Notes: generated by a model not told the origin, from the sequence alone. A DNA stretch of 36,205 nucleotides from an uncultured Bacteroidales bacterium (GCA_900321775.1 ONXE01000001.1:1-36205); one strand, 5' to 3'. Shown: positions 1 through 11,826, counted from the stretch's first letter. Program-made: numbers and translations.

Positions 1-101
1 GATGAGCCATTAGTGTGTTCATTTCATGGGTGTATTCAAAAAAGTCTGTAACGGCTAATGGATACACCCTTTCAATATATTCTTTTAATTCAAAGATTAT
101 T

Positions 102-506
102 ATGAACGCAAAAAACAAGAGGGCCGTGATTTATGCCAGGGTGAGTTCTGAAAATGACAGGCAGGACACATCACGACAAATCACAGACCTTCAAAAATTC
201 AGCGAAGCCCAGGATATGGAAATTGTCAAAATCTATGAAGAGCATATTTCAGGGGCGAAGAAAAATGAGGAGCGACAAGTTCTGACCGAGTGCCTTGACT
301 ACTGCACCAAGAACCATGTCGATTACCTCCTACTATCTGAACTGAGCCGCTTAGGGAGATCGACGCTGCAAGTACTGAAATCCCTTGAGCAGCTACATGA
401 GGCTAAGGTTTCAGTCTACATTCAGAACCTTGGCTTATACTCGCTGCAACCTAATGGAGAAGTCAACCCAATTGCATCCATCCTTATTACCGTTTTGGCT
501 GAGATG
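102..506 (+). pseudogene. Serine recombinase (resolvase/invertase family), catalytic domain only; 3' part apparently removed by phage insertion
   Basis: MNAKNKRAVIYARVSS (catalytic Ser motif), LSRLGRS and ...LAEM align with Gin/Hin. After LAEM the conserved ERELIxERT helix and the C-terminal HTH are missing. The ORF instead reads through a terminator hairpin and antisense into the next gene up to 758. Confidence 0.6.
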
Positions 507-570
507 GGAAATATAGAGTCCGCTTCGCAAAACGAAATGTTACTTTTTCGGGTTCCTTCCCCACAACGAA

Positions 571-2609: not shown

Positions 2610-3095
2610 TTATTCATCCCGATAGTCTTCCGGGTTGAACGCATCTTTCTTCTGCCATCCAGCATCCAGCGTGTCCTGGATAAAACGCATGGCCTTCGTG
2701 TAGAAGTCAGCCAGTTCCTCCAGTCTTTCAAACACCCGATACTTCGGCTGCTCGTCTGTACCGAACTTGAACTTCACAGGTAGCGTCGTACCATTCGACT
2801 GTACGGCGAGGTCGTAGGCTGCCTTGTAGTTGAACTGGTTCTCAGAGGACAGCCACACAGGGTCGCCCTCATACTCGAAGCCGGACAGGATGGTCTGGTC
2901 GGTCTGCTGATTGTACCAGCCAATGACAGCGGCCTTGATTTCCTCGTCAGTCGGCTTGTGGGCGAACTCCGCCTCCATGTAGTCGGCAGATCCGTCCTCA
3001 TGTTCCTGCACGTCCCAGCGGACGCGCCACTTGTTTCTTGCCGGGCTGACGCATTCAATCAGTTTTACACCGGCGGTTCCTTCTGTCCTTTGCAT
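2610..3095 (-). CDS. Hypothetical protein directly downstream of the RT (5-nt gap); C-terminal half resembles the DUF4376-type domain seen in phage tail-fibre-associated proteins
   Basis: 161-aa ORF with protein-like composition. TDQTILSGFEYEGDPVWLSSENQFNYKAAY...LEELADFYTKAMRFIQDTLDAGW recalls DUF4376. This is recollection only, not searched. Confidence 0.5.
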   Translation of the reverse strand: MQRTEGTAGVKLIECVSPARNKWRVRWDVQEHEDGSADYMEAEFAHKPTDEEIKAAVIGWYNQQTDQTILSGFEYEGDPVWLSSENQFNYKAAYDLAVQSNGTTLPVKFKFGTDEQPKYRVFERLEELADFYTKAMRFIQDTLDAGWQKKDAFNPEDYRDE

Positions 3096-3100
3096 TGTCT

Positions 3101-4405
3101 CTAAGTGAAAACGTACTTGGTTCTACCTTTGCCGAAGGTCTCCGTCTTGATGGTGGTCTCGAAGGGGAACCCGTCGGGCATTTCTCTAATCTGGGCGAGG
3201 ATATTCTTCATCTCCTCGCTGTTGGTGAAAAACTTCTTGGGCTCGCCGTTCTGCTCGATGGCCACGATGCAGCGGTCCTCGCCCTGCTCTGTCTTGATGC
3301 CTGTCTCGAAGTCCTTGACTACGATGGGCAGGTTCACCAATTCCCTGATGCTTACCACCGCACCAGAGAAGCGCTTCTTGCCGTCCTCCGGTTTGTAAGC
3401 GACTTTCAAATCCTTGAATGATTTCATCTGTTTGCCTGTTAATTTATTAAACAACATGTTACAATTGGCGTGCTTTGCCATGCCATAGAAGCTCGCTATC
3501 AATTCACGCCTTCTTTTCCTACTCCTGACCTCGTGCATCTTGCGGGCCATCTTCTGCTTGATGCGCTTGCGCAGTTCCACATGCTTGGAACTGTAAATCA
3601 CATAGCCCAGGAAGTCGATGCCCTCACTTACCGGGAACACGCGCTCGTTGGCTTTCACCTCCAAGTCTATATGCTCCACCAGTTCGTGTACCACGTCACG
3701 CACGAGCCACAATTCCGCTTTCGATTTTCCGAGTACCACGCCGTCATCACAATAGCGGTAGAAATGACGCACGCCGTACCTGTCCTTCAAATAGTGGTCT
3801 AAAAATACAGACAATAAGAGATTGCCCAGCCCCTGCGAACTACGCAGCCCGATGCTGATGCCCGACGGCATCATGCGGACAAAGCCGTCCAGCAGGGCAA
3901 TGAGCCTTTTGTCCTTGAAAATCCGCTTCACGCAGTACATCACAAAGTCCGGCTGCACGTTGTCGTAGAACTTCGAGATGTCGAACTTGTAGCAGTACCG
4001 CGTTCCGTCAGGATCTTCCTCCAGGTCGCGCCGGATATACGCCAGCAGGTCGTGCATCCCGCGTTCCTTGATACTGGCCGAGGTGGTGCGGATAAAGCGC
4101 TTGCGCATGTGCCTGTCCACGACATTCATCACGGCATGTACGCCGATGCGGTCATACATGGAGAGCACCTGTATCTTGCGCAGCTTGCCGCCTTCCACGA
4201 TCTCGCGCTCCCTGTAGTCCTTCACGGTGAACGTGCCGGACGCTATACGCTCCGTCAGGTCCCGTATCACCTCGTCCCTATGCGCAAGGAGCCAGCGCCC
4301 CTGGCGTGAGCGTTTCCGCTTCGTGCCTCGGAGCACCGTATCGAAGGAGTCCGACATATTGCCGTACTCAACGATTTCCTCAATGATGTAACCTTCTCTG
4401 CGCAT
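3101..4405 (-). CDS. DGR-type reverse transcriptase with ~100-aa C-terminal extension
   Basis: RT motifs: SIGLRSSQGLGNLL (the [LIV]GxxxSQ hallmark of DGR RTs) and the YCDD catalytic box (FYRYCDDGVVL). A TR lies 241 nt upstream. It is 434 aa versus roughly 330 aa for the Bordetella phage Brt. The extra tail is ...KSFKDLKVAYKPEDGKKRF...TTIKTETFGKGRTKYVFT. Confidence 0.9.
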   Translation of the reverse strand: MRREGYIIEEIVEYGNMSDSFDTVLRGTKRKRSRQGRWLLAHRDEVIRDLTERIASGTFTVKDYREREIVEGGKLRKIQVLSMYDRIGVHAVMNVVDRHMRKRFIRTTSASIKERGMHDLLAYIRRDLEEDPDGTRYCYKFDISKFYDNVQPDFVMYCVKRIFKDKRLIALLDGFVRMMPSGISIGLRSSQGLGNLLLSVFLDHYLKDRYGVRHFYRYCDDGVVLGKSKAELWLVRDVVHELVEHIDLEVKANERVFPVSEGIDFLGYVIYSSKHVELRKRIKQKMARKMHEVRSRKRRRELIASFYGMAKHANCNMLFNKLTGKQMKSFKDLKVAYKPEDGKKRFSGAVVSIRELVNLPIVVKDFETGIKTEQGEDRCIVAIEQNGEPKKFFTNSEEMKNILAQIREMPDGFPFETTIKTETFGKGRTKYVFT

Positions 4406-4646
4406 AGTTCAAAAATTGTTGTTTGCGAAGGCCGAAGCCTTCCTTCCGTGGGTCCAAGTTCTTCGAGCCGTTACCGACCTACCAAACTCTACCCGTCACT
4501 CCGTTTTTCACCTTTCCGGCACATGAGCGGTGTCATGTCCTCTTTATAGAGGTTAAGCCGCTGTTGGTGGGGCTCGGCTCCCTCGGCACCGCACTGGGGA
4601 CACGTCCCCGTCGCTGTACGCCGATTTCAGTTTCTTTGGTTGTTGT
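4406..4646 (-). ncRNA. Structured spacer between TR and RT start (presumed 3' part of the DGR template RNA)
   Basis: Minus-strand hairpins: gaaggc-UUCG-gccuuc (4427-4442, 21 nt before the RT ATG), cctct/agagg (about 4541-4554), acatga/tcatgt (about 4522-4539), gggga-cacg-tcccc (4596-4609). No credible ORF. The role is inferred from DGR biology. Confidence 0.5.
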
Positions 4647-4759
4647 CCAGACGCGACCCGACATTCGCATTCGAGTTCGACGCATCGTTATTCGCATTCG
4701 CGTACGACACACCGCCATTCGCATTCGCGTTGTTGTTGCCGCGATAGACCACACGGCCT
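4647..4759 (-). repeat. DGR template repeat (TR)
   Basis: 113-bp copy of 5013-5125 (offset 366). In the coding frame it reads GRVVYRGNNNANANGGVSYANANNDASNSNANVGSRL, rich in AAY codons. It has 26 adenines on the coding strand, 10 of which differ in VR. Confidence 0.95.
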
Positions 4760-4806
4760 ATGGGAGCTTCCACCCTGAAAAGTGCATATTGTCAGCTTTC
4801 CGACTG

Positions 4807-4814
4807 CAAAGGTA
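4807..4814 (-). promoter_or_regulatory. Candidate -7 promoter box TACCTTTG about 48 nt upstream of TR
   Basis: Plus caaaggta equals minus GTACCTTTGCAG, an exact TAnnTTTG. It sits between the target-gene stop (4945) and TR (4759), so it could drive a dedicated TR-spacer-RT transcript. Confidence 0.45.
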
Positions 4815-4944
4815 CTCATTTTCAGCGAGGCTACCGAAAATTCCACCAACTTCGACGGGCTTACGCCCGTATTTCTTGATGTCTTCGTACCTCAGACATC
4901 ACGCTTTACGCTTTGTCGCTTCGCTCCCGTTTTCGCTTTTCCGC

Positions 4945-7900
4945 TTACGCTACCTCGACTGCCGCCTTGTACGCGGCCACGCTCTCCGCCACCACGATTT
5001 TGCCGCGGAAGGCCAGACGCGACCCGACATACGCATGCGAGCTCGACGCATCGCTAAACGCATACGCGCACGACACACCGCCATTCGCATACGCGTGGTT
5101 GTTGCCGCGATAGACCACACGGCCTGTGGAACCACTGTAGTAATAGTAGTCACAATAGTATGTCGTGCTGCTGCCCGAAGCGGCTGCTGGCACCACGTCC
5201 ATATATTTTCCGTGTGTCACGCCGTTGATCCAGCCGGTGGCCTCCACGCCCTTTACCCGTCGGTATGTTCCGTCAGGCATCAGGTATCGCCACTTGCCGC
5301 CGTTACCGCTGTCGTTCGGAACGTCCACGCAGTCCATCATATCATATTTATGGCCGTAGATGTCCTCGTAGCCGAGGCAGTTCGTGTTGTTCAACTGGTA
5401 GAACACCGTCTCGCCGTCCGTGTTCGTCTCCTTGTAGAAGGCCTTACCGTTGCCTTCCACGCCGCCCACGGTCGTGCCGTTCGTGTTCACCGTGTCCTGC
5501 ATGCCTATCTTCGCAGTGCCGCCGGTGGTTCTGGTGTTTGAGTTTTGTCCCGCGCCGCACTGCATCTGGCTGTCTCGCCGCCCGTACTTGGCAAAGAACA
5601 GGTTGGCGATGTCGTTGTGCATCAGGCCGTCTATCTGCTGCATACCTCTTTGGGCAGAGTAGAAGTGGAAGTCAGTCCACGTCATGCTCGCTGCTGTCGA
5701 GCCGCCGGTGATACAGGCTCTCAGTTTGTCCCCGACCACGCTGCTGCCCACTACGGCGCACAGGTAGGGCTCCACCTCCACCCAGTCGGGTTCCATGTCC
5801 TCTATCTTCGTGCTGTTGCTCAGCACCACCATGTCAAACTCCGCAGTCTTCAGAATCGAGAAGTTCAGGGCAACGGCATTTGCCGGAACGTCGGCTATCA
5901 GGTACATGCCGGCAACGAACTTCGAGCCGAGCGTGCTCACCACTACCGTGCCCACTACGAGACCAGCTGAGTCCGTGAACACGGCACACACAAGGTTCGT
6001 GCCTGGCACACTTGGGAAGCGCACTTTCTTGTAGCCGCTCACGCCCACCCTGCAGACGGCGTAGCTGTTGTCTGCCGTGTAGCTCTGCGCCAGCGTCTCC
6101 TTGCCGCTCATGATCTTGTAGTTATTCCGGTAGTCACCGGCATCCTTGATCTCGTCCAGGGTCACAATGTCGCAGTCCGGCTTCTTCGGCATACGCTCGT
6201 TGCTGCTCCAGCAAGCATAGTGCTTGCCGTTCAGGTAGTCGTTCACACCCTTGAACCAGCGGTGGGGCTCATACATCATCCAGTCGCCCTCCGTGCTGTC
6301 CAGCTTAGCCGCCGAGCAGTTCTTCAGTTCCTGGGCATCGGCGTAGTAGTTCGAGTTCTCTGCATGGAGCGGATAGATGGTCGCCTCGCCATCCCCATTG
6401 TTCTGCGTCGTCGCCACGCCTGCATGGGTGATGTTCCGCGAGGTCGGCTTCTTCGTCACCTTCGCCAGGCAGCGGTAGCGCCTCTTCAGCAGTGCCAGCA
6501 CATGGCCGCTCGCCACATAGTCCGTGCCGAACTTGTAGCCCGTCCCGTTGTCCAGGTTGCTCACGTTGGCGTCGTCGCTCACCGTGTCGTCAAACTCCAG
6601 CATCGAGTAGTCGGGCTGCAGGATCGTCAGCTCCGGGTATCTCGCTTGCATGGCGGCATAGTCCTCGTCGTCCATGTAGCTCGTCAGCTGCACCGTGCCC
6701 ACAAGGGCGCAGTAGTCCACGGCGTTGCCGCTCGCGTCCACGCCCTTCAGGTTCTTGTAGCGGTTCAGCAGGGTTCCGTCGTCTTCCACGCTGATGCCCT
6801 CGATGCGCACACGTTCCACGTTCACGCACTTGCTGATCATCGACTGCCAGCTGATGTTCGGGCAACCGGCATAGCGCAGCGTCTTCACCGTCCGCCAGTT
6901 CTGCAGCGTCAGTCCGCTCTCCTTCAGGTCGGGCAGATACTCCAGTCTCAGCGTCTGGATGTTGCTGCCCAGTTTGGCGGTCGTCAGAGGACAGCCCTGA
7001 GCAAACAGCACCGCTTGGACGTTCACGCCGCGAGCGTCCAGCGTCTTCAGTCGCGTCTGGTTCCTGAAGTCCAGTTCCGTGCTGCTCAGCGTGCCGGTCT
7101 TCGCACTCGCCTGACCGTACAGGTTCACGTCGGTCAACTGGCGGCACTGGTCCAGTACCAGACACCAGCCGGTGCTGCCGCTCCCGTTCGTCTGCAGGTC
7201 AAGCACACGCAGCACCTTGCACTTGTTCAGGTTCAGGTCACCCGTCAGGTTGTTCGCCGCTCCCTCCATGTTCAGTTCGGCAATGCGGCTCGCGCCGTAG
7301 ATTCTTATCGGGTCGTTCACCGTGAAGGCGTTGCTGAACACCAGCGTCACCGTGCCGCCTTTCTTGGCCTCCTCGCTCGGCTGCAGGTGGGGGGCGTTGT
7401 TCGTGCCGTAGCCGAAGTAGTAGAGTTCGCTCGCCTTCACCACGATGGTGTTGGCCGCCTCCGTCGCCTGGCGGCTCATATACATGTCTATGTTGTCAGA
7501 GAGATAGTTGCCCGTCTCATACTTCGCGTCGAGCAGGGCGAAGCGGTTCTGGATGAACCAGTGCCTGAATGCCTGCTTGTCACCCTTCAGGGCGTAGATA
7601 TACGGGTACTTCACGATGCCGGTCTTCGTCTGCACACCCTCGGTCTGGGGCTTGATGTACTTGATTTCGCCGCTCTTGTTGTAGGCTCTGCCGCACCAGT
7701 TCCCCTGCTGCTCCTCGTCGAACATCTGGTTCACCAGTTCCTCGGTCAGTTTCTCTCTCATCGTCGTGGCCATCGCCTTGATCTCATCCTTGAAGTTGGC
7801 GAGAACCAGGCACCACAGCCACGAGTCGTGGCCCTCAAAGGCGTATTTGTTCTTGTCGCTGTCCCACGTCTCTCGCGTCACGTTGTACAGGTATGCCAGC

Positions 7901-10900
7901 ATCGAGTCGTTGCGGTCGCCAATCTGGGTGTCGCCGTCGTAATACAGCAGATACCACACCAGCGCATCCCACGTCGCGGCTATCATGTTCTTCGCCCGCT
8001 GGTCCACGTTGGCGAAGTAATCCGTGAACAGCCACCAGCACAGCAGGAAGTTCAGGTTCAGGTACTGGCTCACCTCCGTTTTGAACTCGCTCGAGACAAA
8101 CGTGCTCACGTCGCTCGGTGTCGCGCCTGCCGGCACACAGTCCCTAATCCAGCCCCACAGACGCTTGAAGGCGTTTTTCTTCGCCGTCGGCGCATTGGCC
8201 CACTTCGTATCCTCGCCACCCGTCTTCGCCGGGTAGTTGAACTCCAGGGCGTTGTCAAACTCCGCTGCCGCCTGCGCGTCCAGGTCGCTCTGTCCCTGGA
8301 ACAGGCACAGCGGCTGCGTGTTGTTCAGGAACTCGAAGGCGATGGGTTCTGTCGGCGTGAAACCATCCACGCCTTCCATGCCGATGATAGCCTGCCAGTC
8401 GCTCTTGTCGTGGTTCAGGTTGTACTGGCCGTAGTAGGTCGGCGTGTCCTCCAGGCTCTCTGCCGAGAACACGTCGATAGGAAAACCGTCCACGGCTGTC
8501 CTCACGTTGCTGTCCACCTGCTGAGGCGGGGTCAGGAACCCCAGCGACTTCATCAGGTTGTTCCACAGCTTCGCGCCGCCGGTGTTCTGAGCCATTGACG
8601 AGTCTGAGTAGTCAGCCTTGGCACAAAGGATCTTCACTTTCTTCTGTCCCACGCGCAGGGCGATCTTCAGTTCCGTCTGCTTCACGCCGTTGATATACAT
8701 CTCCGGATTCTCTCCCTTCGCGCAGTAGATGCGGTAGTTCTTCGTCGGGTATTTCGTCGAGCTCGTGCCCTGGATTCTGATATATACGTTGTGCAGGTAG
8801 ATGTACCGTCCGTCCGGAAGCCACAGGTGCACGTCGGCAAGGAAGTCGGTCTTCTTGTTGTTCTCGGCGTTCACAGGGTCCAGTCCGCCCTGGCGCACCA
8901 CGAGCATGATGCCCTTGCCCTTGTTACGCAGTTTCTGGAAGTCGATGCTCCGTCCGTCCTCGCCCAGCACGTCGTTCTCTTCAAACAGGGCGGCCATCTC
9001 GTCCAGCGTCTGGCGGTTCACGATGTGGTTGTCCATTTCCTCGTCGTCGCTCAGCGCACGGTCATACACATGCACCGTCCGCACCTCCACGTCTGCACCC
9101 GTGCTGTCCAGCGTGATTCCCTTCGGCGTGTCCTGCATGAAGTTGTCGCTGTCACCGTAGATGTCGGCAGCGCAGCGCGTACCGTTCACGTAGAGTTCCA
9201 TCAGGCGCCCTTCTGAGCGCTTGCCAATCACGAAAGCAATCTTCACCCACATATCCTGACCGTACTGGCGGCCAACGCCCACGGGCTGGGTGGTCTTGTT
9301 GCCGTCCTCGTCCTCCACCTCCTTCGTCGAGCCGGTGTACATCATGGCCTTGTCTGCCGTGATCTGGAAGCCCTTCACTCCGTCCAGGCAACTCACCACG
9401 TCGCTCTCCTTGTCCGTGATGTTGCTCACCTTCAGTTCCACCTCAAACGTGCGGCCCGTCGTGGCGGCATCCTGCGTGAAGGGCTTGAAGTCGATGTAGG
9501 CTTTCGCGCCGTTCATCAGCTTCAGCGACTCGCCGGTCCACCCGCTCGTCTGCCAGTCCACGTTCTCGAAGGTGGTCTTCACCTCGCCGTGCTCCCAGTG
9601 CACGGGGTCGCTCTCGCCGTTGCTCCTGCCGGCGGCGCTCAGCTTCAGCCGCAGGTCAAGGGTCGCTTCCTCCACGTCGATGCTGCTCTTGCTCACGTCG
9701 ATATAGAACGGGTATTCCGTCGCGCCGCTCACCAGTTTCATGGTCTGTGCGCCCTGCTCCGTGAAGCGGTTGGCGTAGGTCTGGGTGCTACGGGGAACCG
9801 ACACGTCCTGCACCTTCTCCCCGTTCTGCCACACACTCATCGGGGCAGGGGTAACGCCTGCGTCATACACGGCATACTCGAAGGTCAGCTGCTCATACTG
9901 TCCGGCTGCCAGACGTGGGGTGCGGTGGTCTGTCGTGAAGATGCGTCCGTCCTGGAACGTGTGCTTCGTGCCGATCAGCGGGGCACTGCTGCCGGCCTTG
10001 AAGATGTCCATGTAGATGCTCTCGCTCCTCAGCGTCAGGTCGGCGCTGGCATCCATCTCGGCCACCATCTGCACCGTGTGACGGCCTATGGTCAGTCCGC
10101 TCATCGGTATCGTGAAACTGCCGTTAGTCGCGCCGCTCCTGGTCACGGTCGCAGTCTCGTACTGGCTCCCGTCCACATACAGGGTGACGACCTTCGTGCC
10201 GGTGCCCTGCACGGTGTAGGGGATGACCGCGCTTTCCGTCGAGCCGTAGCCGCCGGTGCTCAGACCGCTGCTCAGGCTGTAACTGCTCTGCAGGCTCAGG
10301 TTCACCACCTTCACGTTCGCATACGCCTGCTTCGTCTGTGTCTTGCCCGTAGTCGGGTCGGTGGTCGTCGCCTTCACGTAGATGTCGGTCGTGCCCACCT
10401 GCAGGTATTTGCTCACATCCAGCGTGTAGGTGCCTTTGCTCACGTCTTCCGTCGTGACGCTGTAGGCAAGGATGGAGCCTCGAAGCACCCTTATCTCCAC
10501 CGTTGCCTTCTGCCCTGTTGTCTGGCCTGCATCATCGCCGCTGGTATATTGATGGTCATAGCTCCACGTCAGCACGCAGTTCCCGCCTTCTTTGATGATG
10601 CCCTGGTTCACGCTTGCGCCCAGCACAATCTTCGTCGCCTGGGTGTCGCCGCCGCCACCGCCACCGCCGGCTGCCAGCGTGAACTGGGTAATGGCCGCAC
10701 CGCTCTTGTTCTTCAGCGTCACCGTCTGGGTGCCGTCGTCGCCTTCCTCCACGTCGCTGTCAAACAGGGTCGCACTCTCTATCTCGTTGAACTTGCCAGC
10801 AACGGCGCGGTTCTCCACAGGGTTCGTGCTCTGGGCATCCAGGCTCGCATCCACCGTCAACTCGTCCACCGTCAGGTCTATGTTGCCTTGGGCGTCGGGG

Positions 10901-11826
10901 GTCTTCTTCTGACCGTTCAGCGTCACGCTCTTCACCGTGCCGCCACCGCCGAAGTCGTCCCAGCTGCTCTCGCTCTCCCAACTGGTCAGGCTGGTACCCA
11001 CAAACTGCTTCGTCTGCCACTTGCCCTGGCTCACCTCGAAGGTCACACATGCGCCTTTCACGCGCTTCTTCTCCTCCACGGCTCTGATGGCGGTGGCAAG
11101 GGTGTAAAAGCCATTGTCCAGCGGATAGGTCTCCGTCACGTTGATGGTATTGCCGCCGCCGGTGCCGCTGGCCTCCACAAGGGCATTATCTTCGTCGCTC
11201 CAGGCATAGAGTGTGTCGCCCTGCAGGTAGAGTTTGTCCTTCCTGATGCCTATCGGGTCAGCGGTCAGGTCGTTGTACATTTCACAACCTTTCCAAGACA
11301 TGCTGTATCTTGTGCCATTCTTGCCGACAAACAGTTTCTTCGCCGTCACATAGTAGATGGCATCCACACTGGTGAAGCTCTGCTCCGCCAGCGTCACGTC
11401 ATCCAATATGCCGGCAAAACGGGCTGTGGCACCGTTCCGAGCCAACACTGCCACGTCCTCATATTGTTCCACCACGGCTTCGGCTGCTTGTGTGGCTTGC
11501 TCCGTCGCTTCTTTCGCATCCGTGGCCGCTTGTGCCGCCGTCTGTGCCGCCTGAGCCTTTGCGTCGGCATTGCCCGCGGCGGTGTTGGCGGTTCCGGCTG
11601 CTCCTTCTGCCGCTGCTTTCGCTGCCAGTGCCTGCGCTGCCGCATCGGTAGCCGGCTTGCCCAGCAGACTTACAGGCGCACTCACCAGTTCCGTGCCGCG
11701 AAGCGCGGGCAGGGTCTTCACCCCGTCAAGGCTCGACACTTCCTCCAGTTCCGTCACGCCCTGGCTCTCGCTCTTGATGGCGTTCAGCACTTCCTGCTTG
11801 ATTTCTTGTTTCTCTTGCTCTGTCAT
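4945..11826 (-). CDS. Giant multidomain tail fibre / receptor-binding protein, DGR target (C-type-lectin-fold-like variable C-terminus)
   Basis: 2293 aa. Ala/Gln-rich N-terminal coiled region. LamG/ConA-like segment (...LMELYVNGTRCA...VRTVHVYDRALSDDEEM). CotH-like segment (IRIQGTSSTKYPTKNYRIY...AKADYSDSSMAQN...YYGQYNLNHDKSD). Leucine-rich repeats (LNKCKVLRVLDLQTN...LKTLDARGVN...LRLEYLPDL). VR lies in the last ~60 aa. The gene follows the Tal-like tail gene. Confidence 0.85.
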   Translation of the reverse strand: MTEQEKQEIKQEVLNAIKSESQGVTELEEVSSLDGVKTLPALRGTELVSAPVSLLGKPATDAAAQALAAKAAAEGAAGTANTAAGNADAKAQAAQTAAQAATDAKEATEQATQAAEAVVEQYEDVAVLARNGATARFAGILDDVTLAEQSFTSVDAIYYVTAKKLFVGKNGTRYSMSWKGCEMYNDLTADPIGIRKDKLYLQGDTLYAWSDEDNALVEASGTGGGNTINVTETYPLDNGFYTLATAIRAVEEKKRVKGACVTFEVSQGKWQTKQFVGTSLTSWESESSWDDFGGGGTVKSVTLNGQKKTPDAQGNIDLTVDELTVDASLDAQSTNPVENRAVAGKFNEIESATLFDSDVEEGDDGTQTVTLKNKSGAAITQFTLAAGGGGGGGDTQATKIVLGASVNQGIIKEGGNCVLTWSYDHQYTSGDDAGQTTGQKATVEIRVLRGSILAYSVTTEDVSKGTYTLDVSKYLQVGTTDIYVKATTTDPTTGKTQTKQAYANVKVVNLSLQSSYSLSSGLSTGGYGSTESAVIPYTVQGTGTKVVTLYVDGSQYETATVTRSGATNGSFTIPMSGLTIGRHTVQMVAEMDASADLTLRSESIYMDIFKAGSSAPLIGTKHTFQDGRIFTTDHRTPRLAAGQYEQLTFEYAVYDAGVTPAPMSVWQNGEKVQDVSVPRSTQTYANRFTEQGAQTMKLVSGATEYPFYIDVSKSSIDVEEATLDLRLKLSAAGRSNGESDPVHWEHGEVKTTFENVDWQTSGWTGESLKLMNGAKAYIDFKPFTQDAATTGRTFEVELKVSNITDKESDVVSCLDGVKGFQITADKAMMYTGSTKEVEDEDGNKTTQPVGVGRQYGQDMWVKIAFVIGKRSEGRLMELYVNGTRCAADIYGDSDNFMQDTPKGITLDSTGADVEVRTVHVYDRALSDDEEMDNHIVNRQTLDEMAALFEENDVLGEDGRSIDFQKLRNKGKGIMLVVRQGGLDPVNAENNKKTDFLADVHLWLPDGRYIYLHNVYIRIQGTSSTKYPTKNYRIYCAKGENPEMYINGVKQTELKIALRVGQKKVKILCAKADYSDSSMAQNTGGAKLWNNLMKSLGFLTPPQQVDSNVRTAVDGFPIDVFSAESLEDTPTYYGQYNLNHDKSDWQAIIGMEGVDGFTPTEPIAFEFLNNTQPLCLFQGQSDLDAQAAAEFDNALEFNYPAKTGGEDTKWANAPTAKKNAFKRLWGWIRDCVPAGATPSDVSTFVSSEFKTEVSQYLNLNFLLCWWLFTDYFANVDQRAKNMIAATWDALVWYLLYYDGDTQIGDRNDSMLAYLYNVTRETWDSDKNKYAFEGHDSWLWCLVLANFKDEIKAMATTMREKLTEELVNQMFDEEQQGNWCGRAYNKSGEIKYIKPQTEGVQTKTGIVKYPYIYALKGDKQAFRHWFIQNRFALLDAKYETGNYLSDNIDMYMSRQATEAANTIVVKASELYYFGYGTNNAPHLQPSEEAKKGGTVTLVFSNAFTVNDPIRIYGASRIAELNMEGAANNLTGDLNLNKCKVLRVLDLQTNGSGSTGWCLVLDQCRQLTDVNLYGQASAKTGTLSSTELDFRNQTRLKTLDARGVNVQAVLFAQGCPLTTAKLGSNIQTLRLEYLPDLKESGLTLQNWRTVKTLRYAGCPNISWQSMISKCVNVERVRIEGISVEDDGTLLNRYKNLKGVDASGNAVDYCALVGTVQLTSYMDDEDYAAMQARYPELTILQPDYSMLEFDDTVSDDANVSNLDNGTGYKFGTDYVASGHVLALLKRRYRCLAKVTKKPTSRNITHAGVATTQNNGDGEATIYPLHAENSNYYADAQELKNCSAAKLDSTEGDWMMYEPHRWFKGVNDYLNGKHYACWSSNERMPKKPDCDIVTLDEIKDAGDYRNNYKIMSGKETLAQSYTADNSYAVCRVGVSGYKKVRFPSVPGTNLVCAVFTDSAGLVVGTVVVSTLGSKFVAGMYLIADVPANAVALNFSILKTAEFDMVVLSNSTKIEDMEPDWVEVEPYLCAVVGSSVVGDKLRACITGGSTAASMTWTDFHFYSAQRGMQQIDGLMHNDIANLFFAKYGRRDSQMQCGAGQNSNTRTTGGTAKIGMQDTVNTNGTTVGGVEGNGKAFYKETNTDGETVFYQLNNTNCLGYEDIYGHKYDMMDCVDVPNDSGNGGKWRYLMPDGTYRRVKGVEATGWINGVTHGKYMDVVPAAASGSSTTYYCDYYYYSGSTGRVVYRGNNHAYANGGVSCAYAFSDASSSHAYVGSRLAFRGKIVVAESVAAYKAAVEVA
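5013..5125 (-). repeat. DGR variable repeat (VR) at the 3' end of the tail-fibre gene
   Basis: 103/113 identical to TR. Mismatches are at VR 5031, 5037, 5042, 5054, 5057, 5058, 5064, 5069, 5091 and 5097, all opposite plus-strand T (coding-strand A) in TR. It encodes GRVVYRGNNHAYANGGVSCAYAFSDASSSHAYVGSRL. Confidence 0.95.

Follow-up and report, generated by a model that had tools for sequence, protein, structure and literature searches.

Comparative evidence for a Hankyphage-type diversity-generating retroelement, with an RT-3 spacer RNA and a helix bracketing the template repeat, in a Mu-like prophage

The repeat pair and its diversification

The DNA considered here, a stretch of 36,205 nucleotides (nt) from an uncultured Bacteroidales bacterium (GCA_900321775.1, ONXE01000001.1:1-36205; hereafter ‘the window’, with positions counted from its first letter), carries on its minus strand a giant tail-protein gene that ends in a variable repeat (VR), followed by a non-coding copy of that repeat (the template repeat, TR), a structured spacer RNA of the Rfam family RT-3, a reverse transcriptase (RT) gene and a small acidic DUF4376 open reading frame (ORF) resembling the protein known as CH1 (Table 1). 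We read these features together as a diversity-generating retroelement (DGR), and consider below what supports this, which other explanations have to be weighed, and how the element compares with the DGRs of Hankyphage p00 and of phage BPP-1.

Table 1. Features of the retroelement and its surroundings, in window coordinates
Feature	Position	Strand	Remarks
161-aa acidic DUF4376 protein, CH1-like	2610..3095	(-)	isoelectric point (pI) 4.64; directly after RT
DGR reverse transcriptase, 434 aa	3101..4405	(-)	RVT_1; aa 1-320 bRT-like core; aa ~326-434 (window ~3104-3430) lineage-specific basic C-terminal domain
UUCG-capped hairpin GAAGGC-TTCG-GCCTTC	4427..4442	(-)	between RT-3 and the RT start codon
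Structured spacer RNA, RT-3 (RF03068)	4449..4626	(-)	128.4 bits vs gathering score 40.5; model positions 1-148 of 148
Long-range helix, 3' strand GGGAGCC	4576..4582	(-)	within RT-3
Template repeat (TR)	4647..4759	(-)	26 adenines; identical in the window and in loci L082, L083 and L084
Long-range helix, 5' strand	4762..4768	(-)	ends 2 nt upstream of the first TR nucleotide
TAnnTTTG box (TACCTTTG), candidate promoter	4807..4814	(-)	55 nt upstream of TR
GC-rich hairpin ACGGGC-GTAA-GCCCGT, probable terminator	4855..4870	(-)	conserved and covarying (CGGGC/GCCCG, CCGGC/GCCGG and CCTGC/GCAGG variants)
Second hairpin	4878-4900	(-)	upstream of the GC-rich hairpin
Near-invariant noncoding motif CGGGAGCGAAGCGACAAA, 18 nt	4912..4929	(-)	from alignment; in an AAGCG repeat cluster (4902-4946) just after the target stop
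DGR target gene, 2293-aa distal tail protein	4945..11826	(-)	ORF; VR lies 22 codons before the stop
VR 3' boundary, candidate IMH-like element	5003..5028	(-)	A-free shared 16 nt (5013-5028) plus VR-specific GC-rich flank CCTTCCGCGG (5003-5012)
Variable repeat (VR)	5013..5125	(-)	inside the 3' end of the target ORF; differs from relatives’ VRs at TR-adenine sites

TR and VR align over 113 nt at an offset of 366 and differ at exactly 10 positions (4665, 4671, 4676, 4688, 4691, 4692, 4698, 4703, 4725 and 4731 of the plus strand), each of which is a T on the plus strand of TR and thus an adenine on the coding strand. With a coding-strand composition of 26 A, 26 C, 39 G and 22 T, the probability that ten random mismatches should all fall on TR adenines is 8.6e-8 (hypergeometric, 26 A among 113). 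The changes from TR to VR are A>T (five), A>G (three) and A>C (two); in frame, TR reads GRVVYRGNNNANANGGVSYANANNDASNSNANVGSRL and VR reads GRVVYRGNNHAYANGGVSCAYAFSDASSSHAYVGSRL, with nine codons (eight Asn, one Tyr) recoded. The last 16 nt of the repeat, GTCGGGTCGCGTCTGG, contain no A, are identical in both copies, and mark the point immediately beyond which homology stops. A preliminary description of this DNA had listed the repeats with their offset, the ten mismatches and the lack of any at a non-adenine position, the count of 26 adenines, the translations with their recoded codons, and the abrupt end of homology after the shared 16 nt; exact alignment, an adenine-bias test and recomputed translations reproduce every one of these numbers.

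TR is the non-coding copy, lying 366 nt downstream of VR and 241 nt before the start of the RT ORF. All except one of its adenines (25/26) occupy codon positions 1-2, in 11 AAY codons together with TAT, TAC and GAT, and since only AAY, TAY and GAT codons are thereby recoded, no stop codon can arise in VR; by our own arithmetic the theoretical repertoire comprises ~15^11 x 4^3 = 5e14 encodable peptides. A 59-nt pattern with its adenines masked finds TR and VR as the sole matches in the window, where chance would give 0.

The neighbouring ORF was said in the preliminary description to bear the [LIV]GxxxSQ and YxDD signature of DGR enzymes, and it does so in the form of IGLRSSQ (3833-3853) and YCDD (3743-3754), neither of which varies across 32 family members. 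The solved structure that it matches best in sequence is the RT of the BPP-1 DGR (8ub7; E 1.1e-19, residues 3-320 against 4-317 of 328), with group II intron RTs ranking behind (E 3.9e-11); with its AlphaFold2 model (mean predicted local distance difference test score, pLDDT, of 70), 8ub7 and 8ubd are the top fold matches returned by Foldseek. The alignment also keeps the counterparts of what we take to be Arg74 and Ile181 of the BPP-1 enzyme, bRT. Judged by its motifs, and by the match in sequence and fold to the BPP-1 RT, we assign the ORF to the DGR clade of reverse transcriptases.

Relatives of the element were retrieved with an A-masked TR pattern and, free of that bias, with a pattern from the 3' flank of VR, to which one genome match (L002) was added. 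Six of them are 92-96% identical to the window in flanking DNA, and the VRs of the resulting seven phages (window included) are all different; 70 of their 71 TR-VR mismatches lie at TR adenines, and 24 of the 26 adenine sites vary in at least one phage. Compared between these phages, the non-A positions of VR are 97-100% identical and the A positions 46-69%, while TR is identical or nearly so throughout. Where TR does carry non-A substitutions, they recur in the VR of the same phage (C>T in L088; TG>CA in L002 and L089), and the adenine newly created by TG>CA is itself mutated in L002. We regard these mirrored changes as the signature of directional transfer from TR to VR after these phages diverged. 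The same bias extends to 29 more diverse loci with full-length pairs, where 269 of 275 mismatches are at TR adenines and A makes up 23% of TR.

For about 33 family loci, the search with masked adenines detected no VR within 10 kb; some of these are VR/TR collapses and others have a different gene upstream of TR. In L011, L019, L024 and about 25 other loci, a cassette of TR, RT-3, RT and CH1 is preceded by a different small gene, not the target, and at the thresholds used no VR was seen within 10 kb on either strand; the target of these cassettes may be remote, or their arrangement may be different. In L029, L031, L045 and L095, the target ORF runs straight into a TR-type repeat and then RT-3, without the VR-to-TR interval, which either collapsed with the repeat during assembly or was truly deleted by recombination; the RT of L095 is in addition interrupted by an in-frame stop. 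Finally, L096 (3250-4320) holds a decayed DGR that has kept its VR, terminator hairpin, promoter box and TR but lost RT-3 and roughly the first 230 codons of the RT, whose remaining tail has been called as a 106-aa gene.

Spacer RNA, flanking helix and accessory ORFs

The spacer between TR and the RT gene begins with a 20-nt A-rich linker, followed by the RT-3 RNA. RT-3 is the sole Rfam family in the window; the Rfam scan gave no match there to Phage_DGR (RF03022). Across 32 family spacers, compensatory changes occur in 26 of the 38 predicted pairs and 97% of cells can pair, where slid controls reach 31-53%, and the RT-3 core lies upstream of the RT in 82/82 family loci. The RT-3 motif was found beside RT genes by Weinberg et al. 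(2017; PMC5737381), who assigned only RT-10 to a DGR (that of BPP-1) and speculated on a DGR role for the other RT motifs; RT-10 now has the Rfam name Phage_DGR, and the BPP-1 spacer matches it. Our literature search found no paper that links RT-3 to a DGR, and this previously unassigned RNA can now be read, on comparative grounds, as the spacer RNA of an Avd-less Bacteroidales DGR lineage.

The 3' domain of RT-3 consists of a long stem, a GGUA/CGAA interior loop and a capped hairpin, and resembles in architecture the corresponding domains of Phage_DGR and RT-18. Indeed, the 3' halves of RT-3, RT-18 (a sub-threshold match of 27.9 bits) and Phage_DGR/RT-10 share one layout of stem, xGUA, short hairpin, GAA(A) and stem (window 4440-4532; L090 2750-2882), which hints at an RT-binding core common to DGR spacer RNAs. 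A separate peculiarity of the window’s clade is that the loop of the second RT-3 helix (4490-4560), 4 nt long in the Rfam consensus, carries a 34-nt insertion, which folds into two small extra hairpins.

Beyond the Rfam model, which lacks a partner strand 5' of TR, a long-range helix pairs a segment just upstream of TR with a strand inside RT-3. In 59 sequences, 95.9% of its cells are paired, against 43-66% in slid controls, and all seven pairs (7/7) show compensatory double changes (88 cells), with variants such as GTTTCCC/GGGAAAC, GTCCCTC/GAGGGGC, GCCACCC/GGGTGGC and GTTCCAT/ATGGAAC; in the window the outermost pair is A-C, and hence six pairs form. A similar element is known from BPP-1, where the ‘cPRT Stop’, a duplex of sequence upstream of TR with spacer (Sp) nucleotides 59-70, ends cDNA synthesis and is also required for it, and where the 3' part of the spacer (Sp 95-139), a long stem with interior loops, binds bRT (bioRxiv 10.1101/2023.10.23.563531); the survey of such elements by Handa et al. 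in the same work covered Avd-containing DGRs only. Because the helix ends 2 nt before the first TR nucleotide, it would explain the position at which TR/VR homology stops.

Two other pairings were considered and set aside. A long-range helix proposed by RNAalifold between the TR 3' end and sequence after RT-3 is probably spurious, being mostly G-U in the window, with the local UUCG hairpin explaining the segment; a GGUGG:CCACC pairing upstream of TR was rejected, as CCACC is part of a covarying RT-3 helix and GGUGG shows no covariation with it.

At the other edge of the repeat, we looked for counterparts of the initiation of mutagenic homing (IMH) element, which in a DGR sits at the VR 3' end, has an IMH* partner in TR and gives transfer its direction. 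There is no imperfect IMH/IMH* pair at the TR/VR 3' ends, where homology simply ends, and the family alignment shows no conserved BPP-1-like hairpin directly downstream of VR. Over the 29 loci, the 15 nt CGTCTGGCCTTCCGC at the VR 3' boundary (codons CGT CTG GCC TTC CGC) are essentially invariant at synonymous sites; as some other codons are likewise invariant, this is suggestive, being compatible with an IMH-like DNA element and not decisive. An IMH-like role for the 16-nt repeat end is nonetheless plausible.

The interval between target stop and TR contains no conserved ORF and several conserved signals. A TAnnTTTG box is visible in the alignment and occurs within 110 nt upstream of TR in 68/72 loci. 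Such a box matches the Bacteroidetes -7 promoter consensus, from which we infer that it acts as a promoter; a sigma-70 promoter scan found nothing, as expected for Bacteroidota. The covarying GC-rich hairpin is probably the terminator of the tail operon. Closer to the target stop, five AAGCG copies fall within 41 nt, against 1.7 per kb over the whole window, and the 18-nt motif among them persists at loci where RT identity is as low as ~70%; none of our findings accounts for it. A 64-aa ORF (hp41), annotated between target and TR in p00 (L001/L087, 38223-38417) and in jmh42_hp, was rejected both as a gene and as a candidate Avd: it is probably not a gene, because a stop codon interrupts the window version (4760-4944) and the conservation is at the nucleotide level (hairpin and promoter box).

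The 110-aa C-terminal domain of the RT is near-invariant, more conserved than the catalytic core, and basic (pI 9.0); its AlphaFold2 model is predicted to be β-rich with one helix. It has no match in Pfam or the PDB and no similarity to BPP-1 Avd. Extensions of this kind are borne by ~20% of DGR RTs (Wu et al. 2018, PMC5758913). The existence of a standalone version, suggested by phrog_19665 and by many matches of 103-110 aa, was ruled out on inspection; these are artefacts of contigs that start inside the RT gene, of the split RT of L095 and of the 5'-deleted remnant in L096. For one 108-aa protein, P0404, indexed in 811 blocks of the sequence collection, the contig at each of four sites shown (L091-L094) starts 26-45 nt before an internal Met of the domain; these starts may reflect an assembly-graph break where the near-invariant segment meets variable sequence, yielding spurious ‘108-aa proteins’ in protein catalogues.

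Directly after the RT, at -7 to +36 nt, the acidic DUF4376 ORF is found in 82/83 loci. It corresponds in its features to CH1, a protein of 160-169 aa with a pI of 4.7 +/- 0.2 and no motifs, which is found only in DGRs without avd, HRDC or MSL and defines Architecture E1, itself restricted to Lineage 3a and thereby to Bacteroides and relatives (Wu et al. 2018, PMC5758913). The hosts of the related cassettes found here include Prevotellaceae, Bacteroidaceae, Muribaculaceae and others. The ORF thus fits CH1, and the element Architecture E1 and Lineage 3a, the equation being drawn from size, charge, position and host range, not from sequence. It is the same acidic ORF downstream of the RT that is noted as ‘Avd’ in PV107404 (L085, jmh42_hp; 38482-38967). 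Comparison of the DUF4376 ORF with BPP-1 Avd, Avd being a basic four-helix bundle, gave no similarity, and the ‘Avd’ label in recent Hankyphage records is backed by neither homology nor charge.

Interpretation, alternatives and a working model

The surroundings are those of a phage. A megablast of 3000-6500 against phage genomes returned 15 records, of which 14 are Bacteroides phages; all seem to be Hankyphage p00 or its relatives, and they match at ~77% over the RT region. At the protein level, the RT is 79% identical to its p00 counterpart, the 161-aa ORF 70% and the target, over its full length, 53%. The whole window is syntenic with p00, with genes for Mu Gam-like and gpG-like proteins, an oppositely oriented MuF/portal/gp36/terminase block, protease, capsid, amidase, tape measure, hub and a 1320-aa fibre-like protein, then the DGR module and Mor-like, methyltransferase (MTase) and ThyA genes. 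Homology with at least 8 related prophages or contigs stops at ~519-529, marking the right end of the prophage; window 1-518 is flanking DNA beyond this Mu-like end, probably of the host. The closest genome records are Prevotellaceae or Alloprevotella-like metagenome-assembled genomes. The DGR of Hankyphage was described by Benler et al. (2018; PMC6199706), and it is active, in that VR positions matching TR adenines are mutated in culture and in virions (PMC12135933).

No gene of the tail module is larger than the target, which comes last in it, after those for the tape measure, tail hub and 1320-aa tail-fibre-like protein. VR spans about residues 2234-2271 of its product, within a region (2033-2273) that matches phrog_14959, phrog_24896 and phrog_5302 ‘tail protein’. 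In the preliminary description it was called a phage receptor-binding protein; gene position and the PHROG match bear out the tail protein, from which receptor binding itself is a further step. Searches for its fold were negative: the full-length protein has no PDB match, the C-terminal region gives an empty result in a profile search of PDB sequences and in Pfam at E<=10, Foldseek returned only noise for the C-terminal model, and hhalign detected no similarity to BPP-1 Mtd. For the p00 homologue, a C-type-lectin domain has been reported (Benler 2018, PMC6199706).

Taking these findings together, we are confident that the locus is a Hankyphage-type DGR of Architecture E1 / Lineage 3a (Wu et al. 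2018), in a Mu-like transposable prophage of a Prevotellaceae host. That a DGR lies here had already been proposed in the preliminary description, and the proposal gains support from the match of the RT to 8ub7, from the turnover of VR in near-identical phages, from the adenine bias of the wider family, and from the published, active p00 homologue. Its wording, that the locus shows the ‘full signature’ of mutagenic retrohoming, was too strong in one respect: the DGR stands, but no Avd was found, and the architecture is an Avd-less one with CH1.

Several observations do weigh against this assignment, or at least against its fullest form. No canonical Avd, HRDC or MSL was found, nor any Avd-type Pfam family in the 25 ORFs scanned, and for this reason the priming mechanism of BPP-1 cannot simply be transferred here. 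A C-type-lectin fold of the target was not confirmed, the AlphaFold2 model of its last 309 residues (pLDDT 50) being too poor to use. The IMH role, the promoter and the priming site are features that we infer; the evidence for diversification is comparative and speaks for the lineage, not for the present activity of this copy. Furthermore, if the window comes from a metagenome assembly, as it may, its VR could represent the consensus of a population.

This bears on one alternative in particular, namely that the element is a fossil, a cassette that looks intact and no longer diversifies here, its VR differences being historical. Decayed or collapsed relatives do exist, as seen in the 5'-truncated RT of L096, the interrupted RT of L095 and the merged VR and TR of L029, L031 and L045, but here RT, TR, RT-3 and the CH1 ORF are all intact with catalytic motifs present, VRs differ even among phages with 92-96% identical flanks, and recent point changes in TR have already been copied into VR; we consider a fossil to be distinctly improbable. 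A tandem-like duplication of the ordinary sort, in which the gene’s 3' end was doubled and the copies diverged by random mutation, has even less to recommend it: the presence of two 113-nt copies 366 nt apart has to be set against ten out of ten differences at A, the conservation of TR while VR varies, and a DGR-clade RT that adjoins the repeats; the adenine bias in the window, in the seven close phages and in the 29 loci (269/275) already refutes it, and its probability is negligible.

The remaining alternative leaves the DGR itself intact and concerns its purpose: the target could be diversified for adhesion to mucus or glycans and not for binding a host receptor, making a reading in terms of tropism switching wrong. 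‘Bacteriophage adherence to mucus’ has been put forward for Hankyphage (Benler 2018, PMC6199706), and domain and PDB searches recognise no receptor-binding-protein domain in the 2293-aa target, whose receptor role is putative. We nevertheless regard this as unlikely, if less so than a fossil element: the target closes the tail module, with the tape-measure, hub and fibre-like genes just before it, its C-terminus matches PHROG ‘tail protein’, and receptor switching agrees with the broad host range of hankyphages (PMC12135933); moreover, neither function excludes the other.

For a Hankyphage-type DGR of this kind, we suggest the following working model. An RNA comprising the 113-nt TR, the A-rich linker and RT-3 would be transcribed from the Bacteroidetes-type promoter, and a helix of 6-7 bp, demonstrated by covariation, joins the nucleotides just 5' of TR to RT-3; by analogy with the ‘cPRT Stop’ of BPP-1, this helix would halt cDNA synthesis and so set the 5' edge of the repeat. 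The RT, with its bRT-like core and C-terminal domain, would bind the 3' stem of RT-3 and prime in cis near the TR 3' end. That it copies TR with misincorporation opposite adenines is shown by the mismatch pattern, and that the cDNA then replaces VR at the 3' end of the tail-protein gene is shown by the reappearance of non-A TR variants in VR. No Avd would take part, and the acidic CH1/DUF4376 protein, being tightly coupled to the RT, is a candidate accessory factor.

More tentatively, and with somewhat less than even confidence, we propose that Lineage-3a DGRs run an Avd-independent, BPP-1-like ribonucleoprotein (RNP) mechanism on an RT-3 scaffold, in which the covarying helix would be the cDNA stop, the 3' stem with its GGUA/CGAA loop the RT-binding element and CCGA the priming site, with the RT C-terminal domain and/or CH1 replacing the positioning role of Avd. 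Here we speculate that the CCGA with which hairpin P1 ends (4583-4586), directly adjoining the stop strand on its 5' side, might change partners and pair with UCGG (4658-4661), close to the 3' end of TR; priming from its terminal adenosine would leave the A-free 15-nt ‘IMH-like’ tail uncopied. The idea mirrors the pairing of Sp 53-56 with TR 118-121 in BPP-1 (bioRxiv 10.1101/2023.10.23.563531). The 3'-most A-to-N change in the family lies directly 5' of UCGG (L059), which is compatible with such priming and no proof of it.

Seen as a whole, the element is one diverged, Prevotellaceae-associated addition to a known, widespread and experimentally active DGR family, to which the RT-3 assignment and the TR-bracketing helix are modest additions. 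The helix extends a BPP-1-like ‘cPRT Stop’ element to an Avd-less lineage; together with RT-3, it defines a concrete RNA construct (about window 4400-4815) for biochemistry, with which cDNA priming in the absence of Avd can be tested directly in a family of phages that abounds in the guts of humans and animals.

Comparison with known systems

The nearest known system is the DGR of Hankyphage p00, with which the window shares gene order (tail genes, a giant target with C-terminal VR, TR, 434-aa RT, 161-aa DUF4376 ORF and Mor-like ORF), a Mu-like backbone that includes the inverted terminase/portal/MuF block, a similar repeat length and an RT-3 spacer. The differences lie in the target, only 53% identical, and in a megablast match confined to the RT region at 77%, from which we judge that the phage probably lies outside the p00 genus (the criterion being an intergenomic similarity >70%). 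The host lineage is Prevotellaceae or Alloprevotella-like, whereas that of p00 is Bacteroides or Phocaeicola; the spacer has 241 nt, with the 34-nt RT-3 insertion, against 215 nt in p00; the 64-aa ORF annotated in p00 is interrupted by a stop; and at 619-2113 the order is Mor-like, MTase (D12-class N6-adenine) and ThyA (thymidylate-synthase-like), where p00 has Mor-like, ThyA and MTase.

With the more distant BPP-1 system (mtd-avd-TR-brt, Architecture B; RNP structures 8ub7-8ubf), the element has in common an adenine-specific transfer from TR to VR in the C-terminus of a tail protein, a homologous RT core, a repeat whose 3' end is rich in GC and free of A, a structured RNA in the TR-RT spacer whose long 3' stem has interior loops, and helical pairing of this spacer with a segment upstream of TR. 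It differs in that BPP-1 has Avd, none being found here, and an imperfect IMH/IMH* pair that is not present here; in that the spacer of BPP-1 belongs to Phage_DGR (RF03022) and that of the window to RT-3 (RF03068); in the extra 110-aa C-terminal domain of the RT and the acidic CH1 ORF downstream; and in the target, to which Mtd shows no detectable similarity.

Set beside the survey of Wu et al. (PMC5758913), in which the spacer RNA, the TR-flanking helix and the promoter box are not described, the window agrees with E1/Lineage 3a in its acidic ORF (161 aa and pI 4.64, against 160-169 aa and 4.7 +/- 0.2 for CH1) and in that no avd, HRDC or MSL was found. Finally, the spacer conforms to RT-3 as defined in Rfam, in that it matches the model over its full length (128 bits) and lies, like the motif itself, beside an RT gene.

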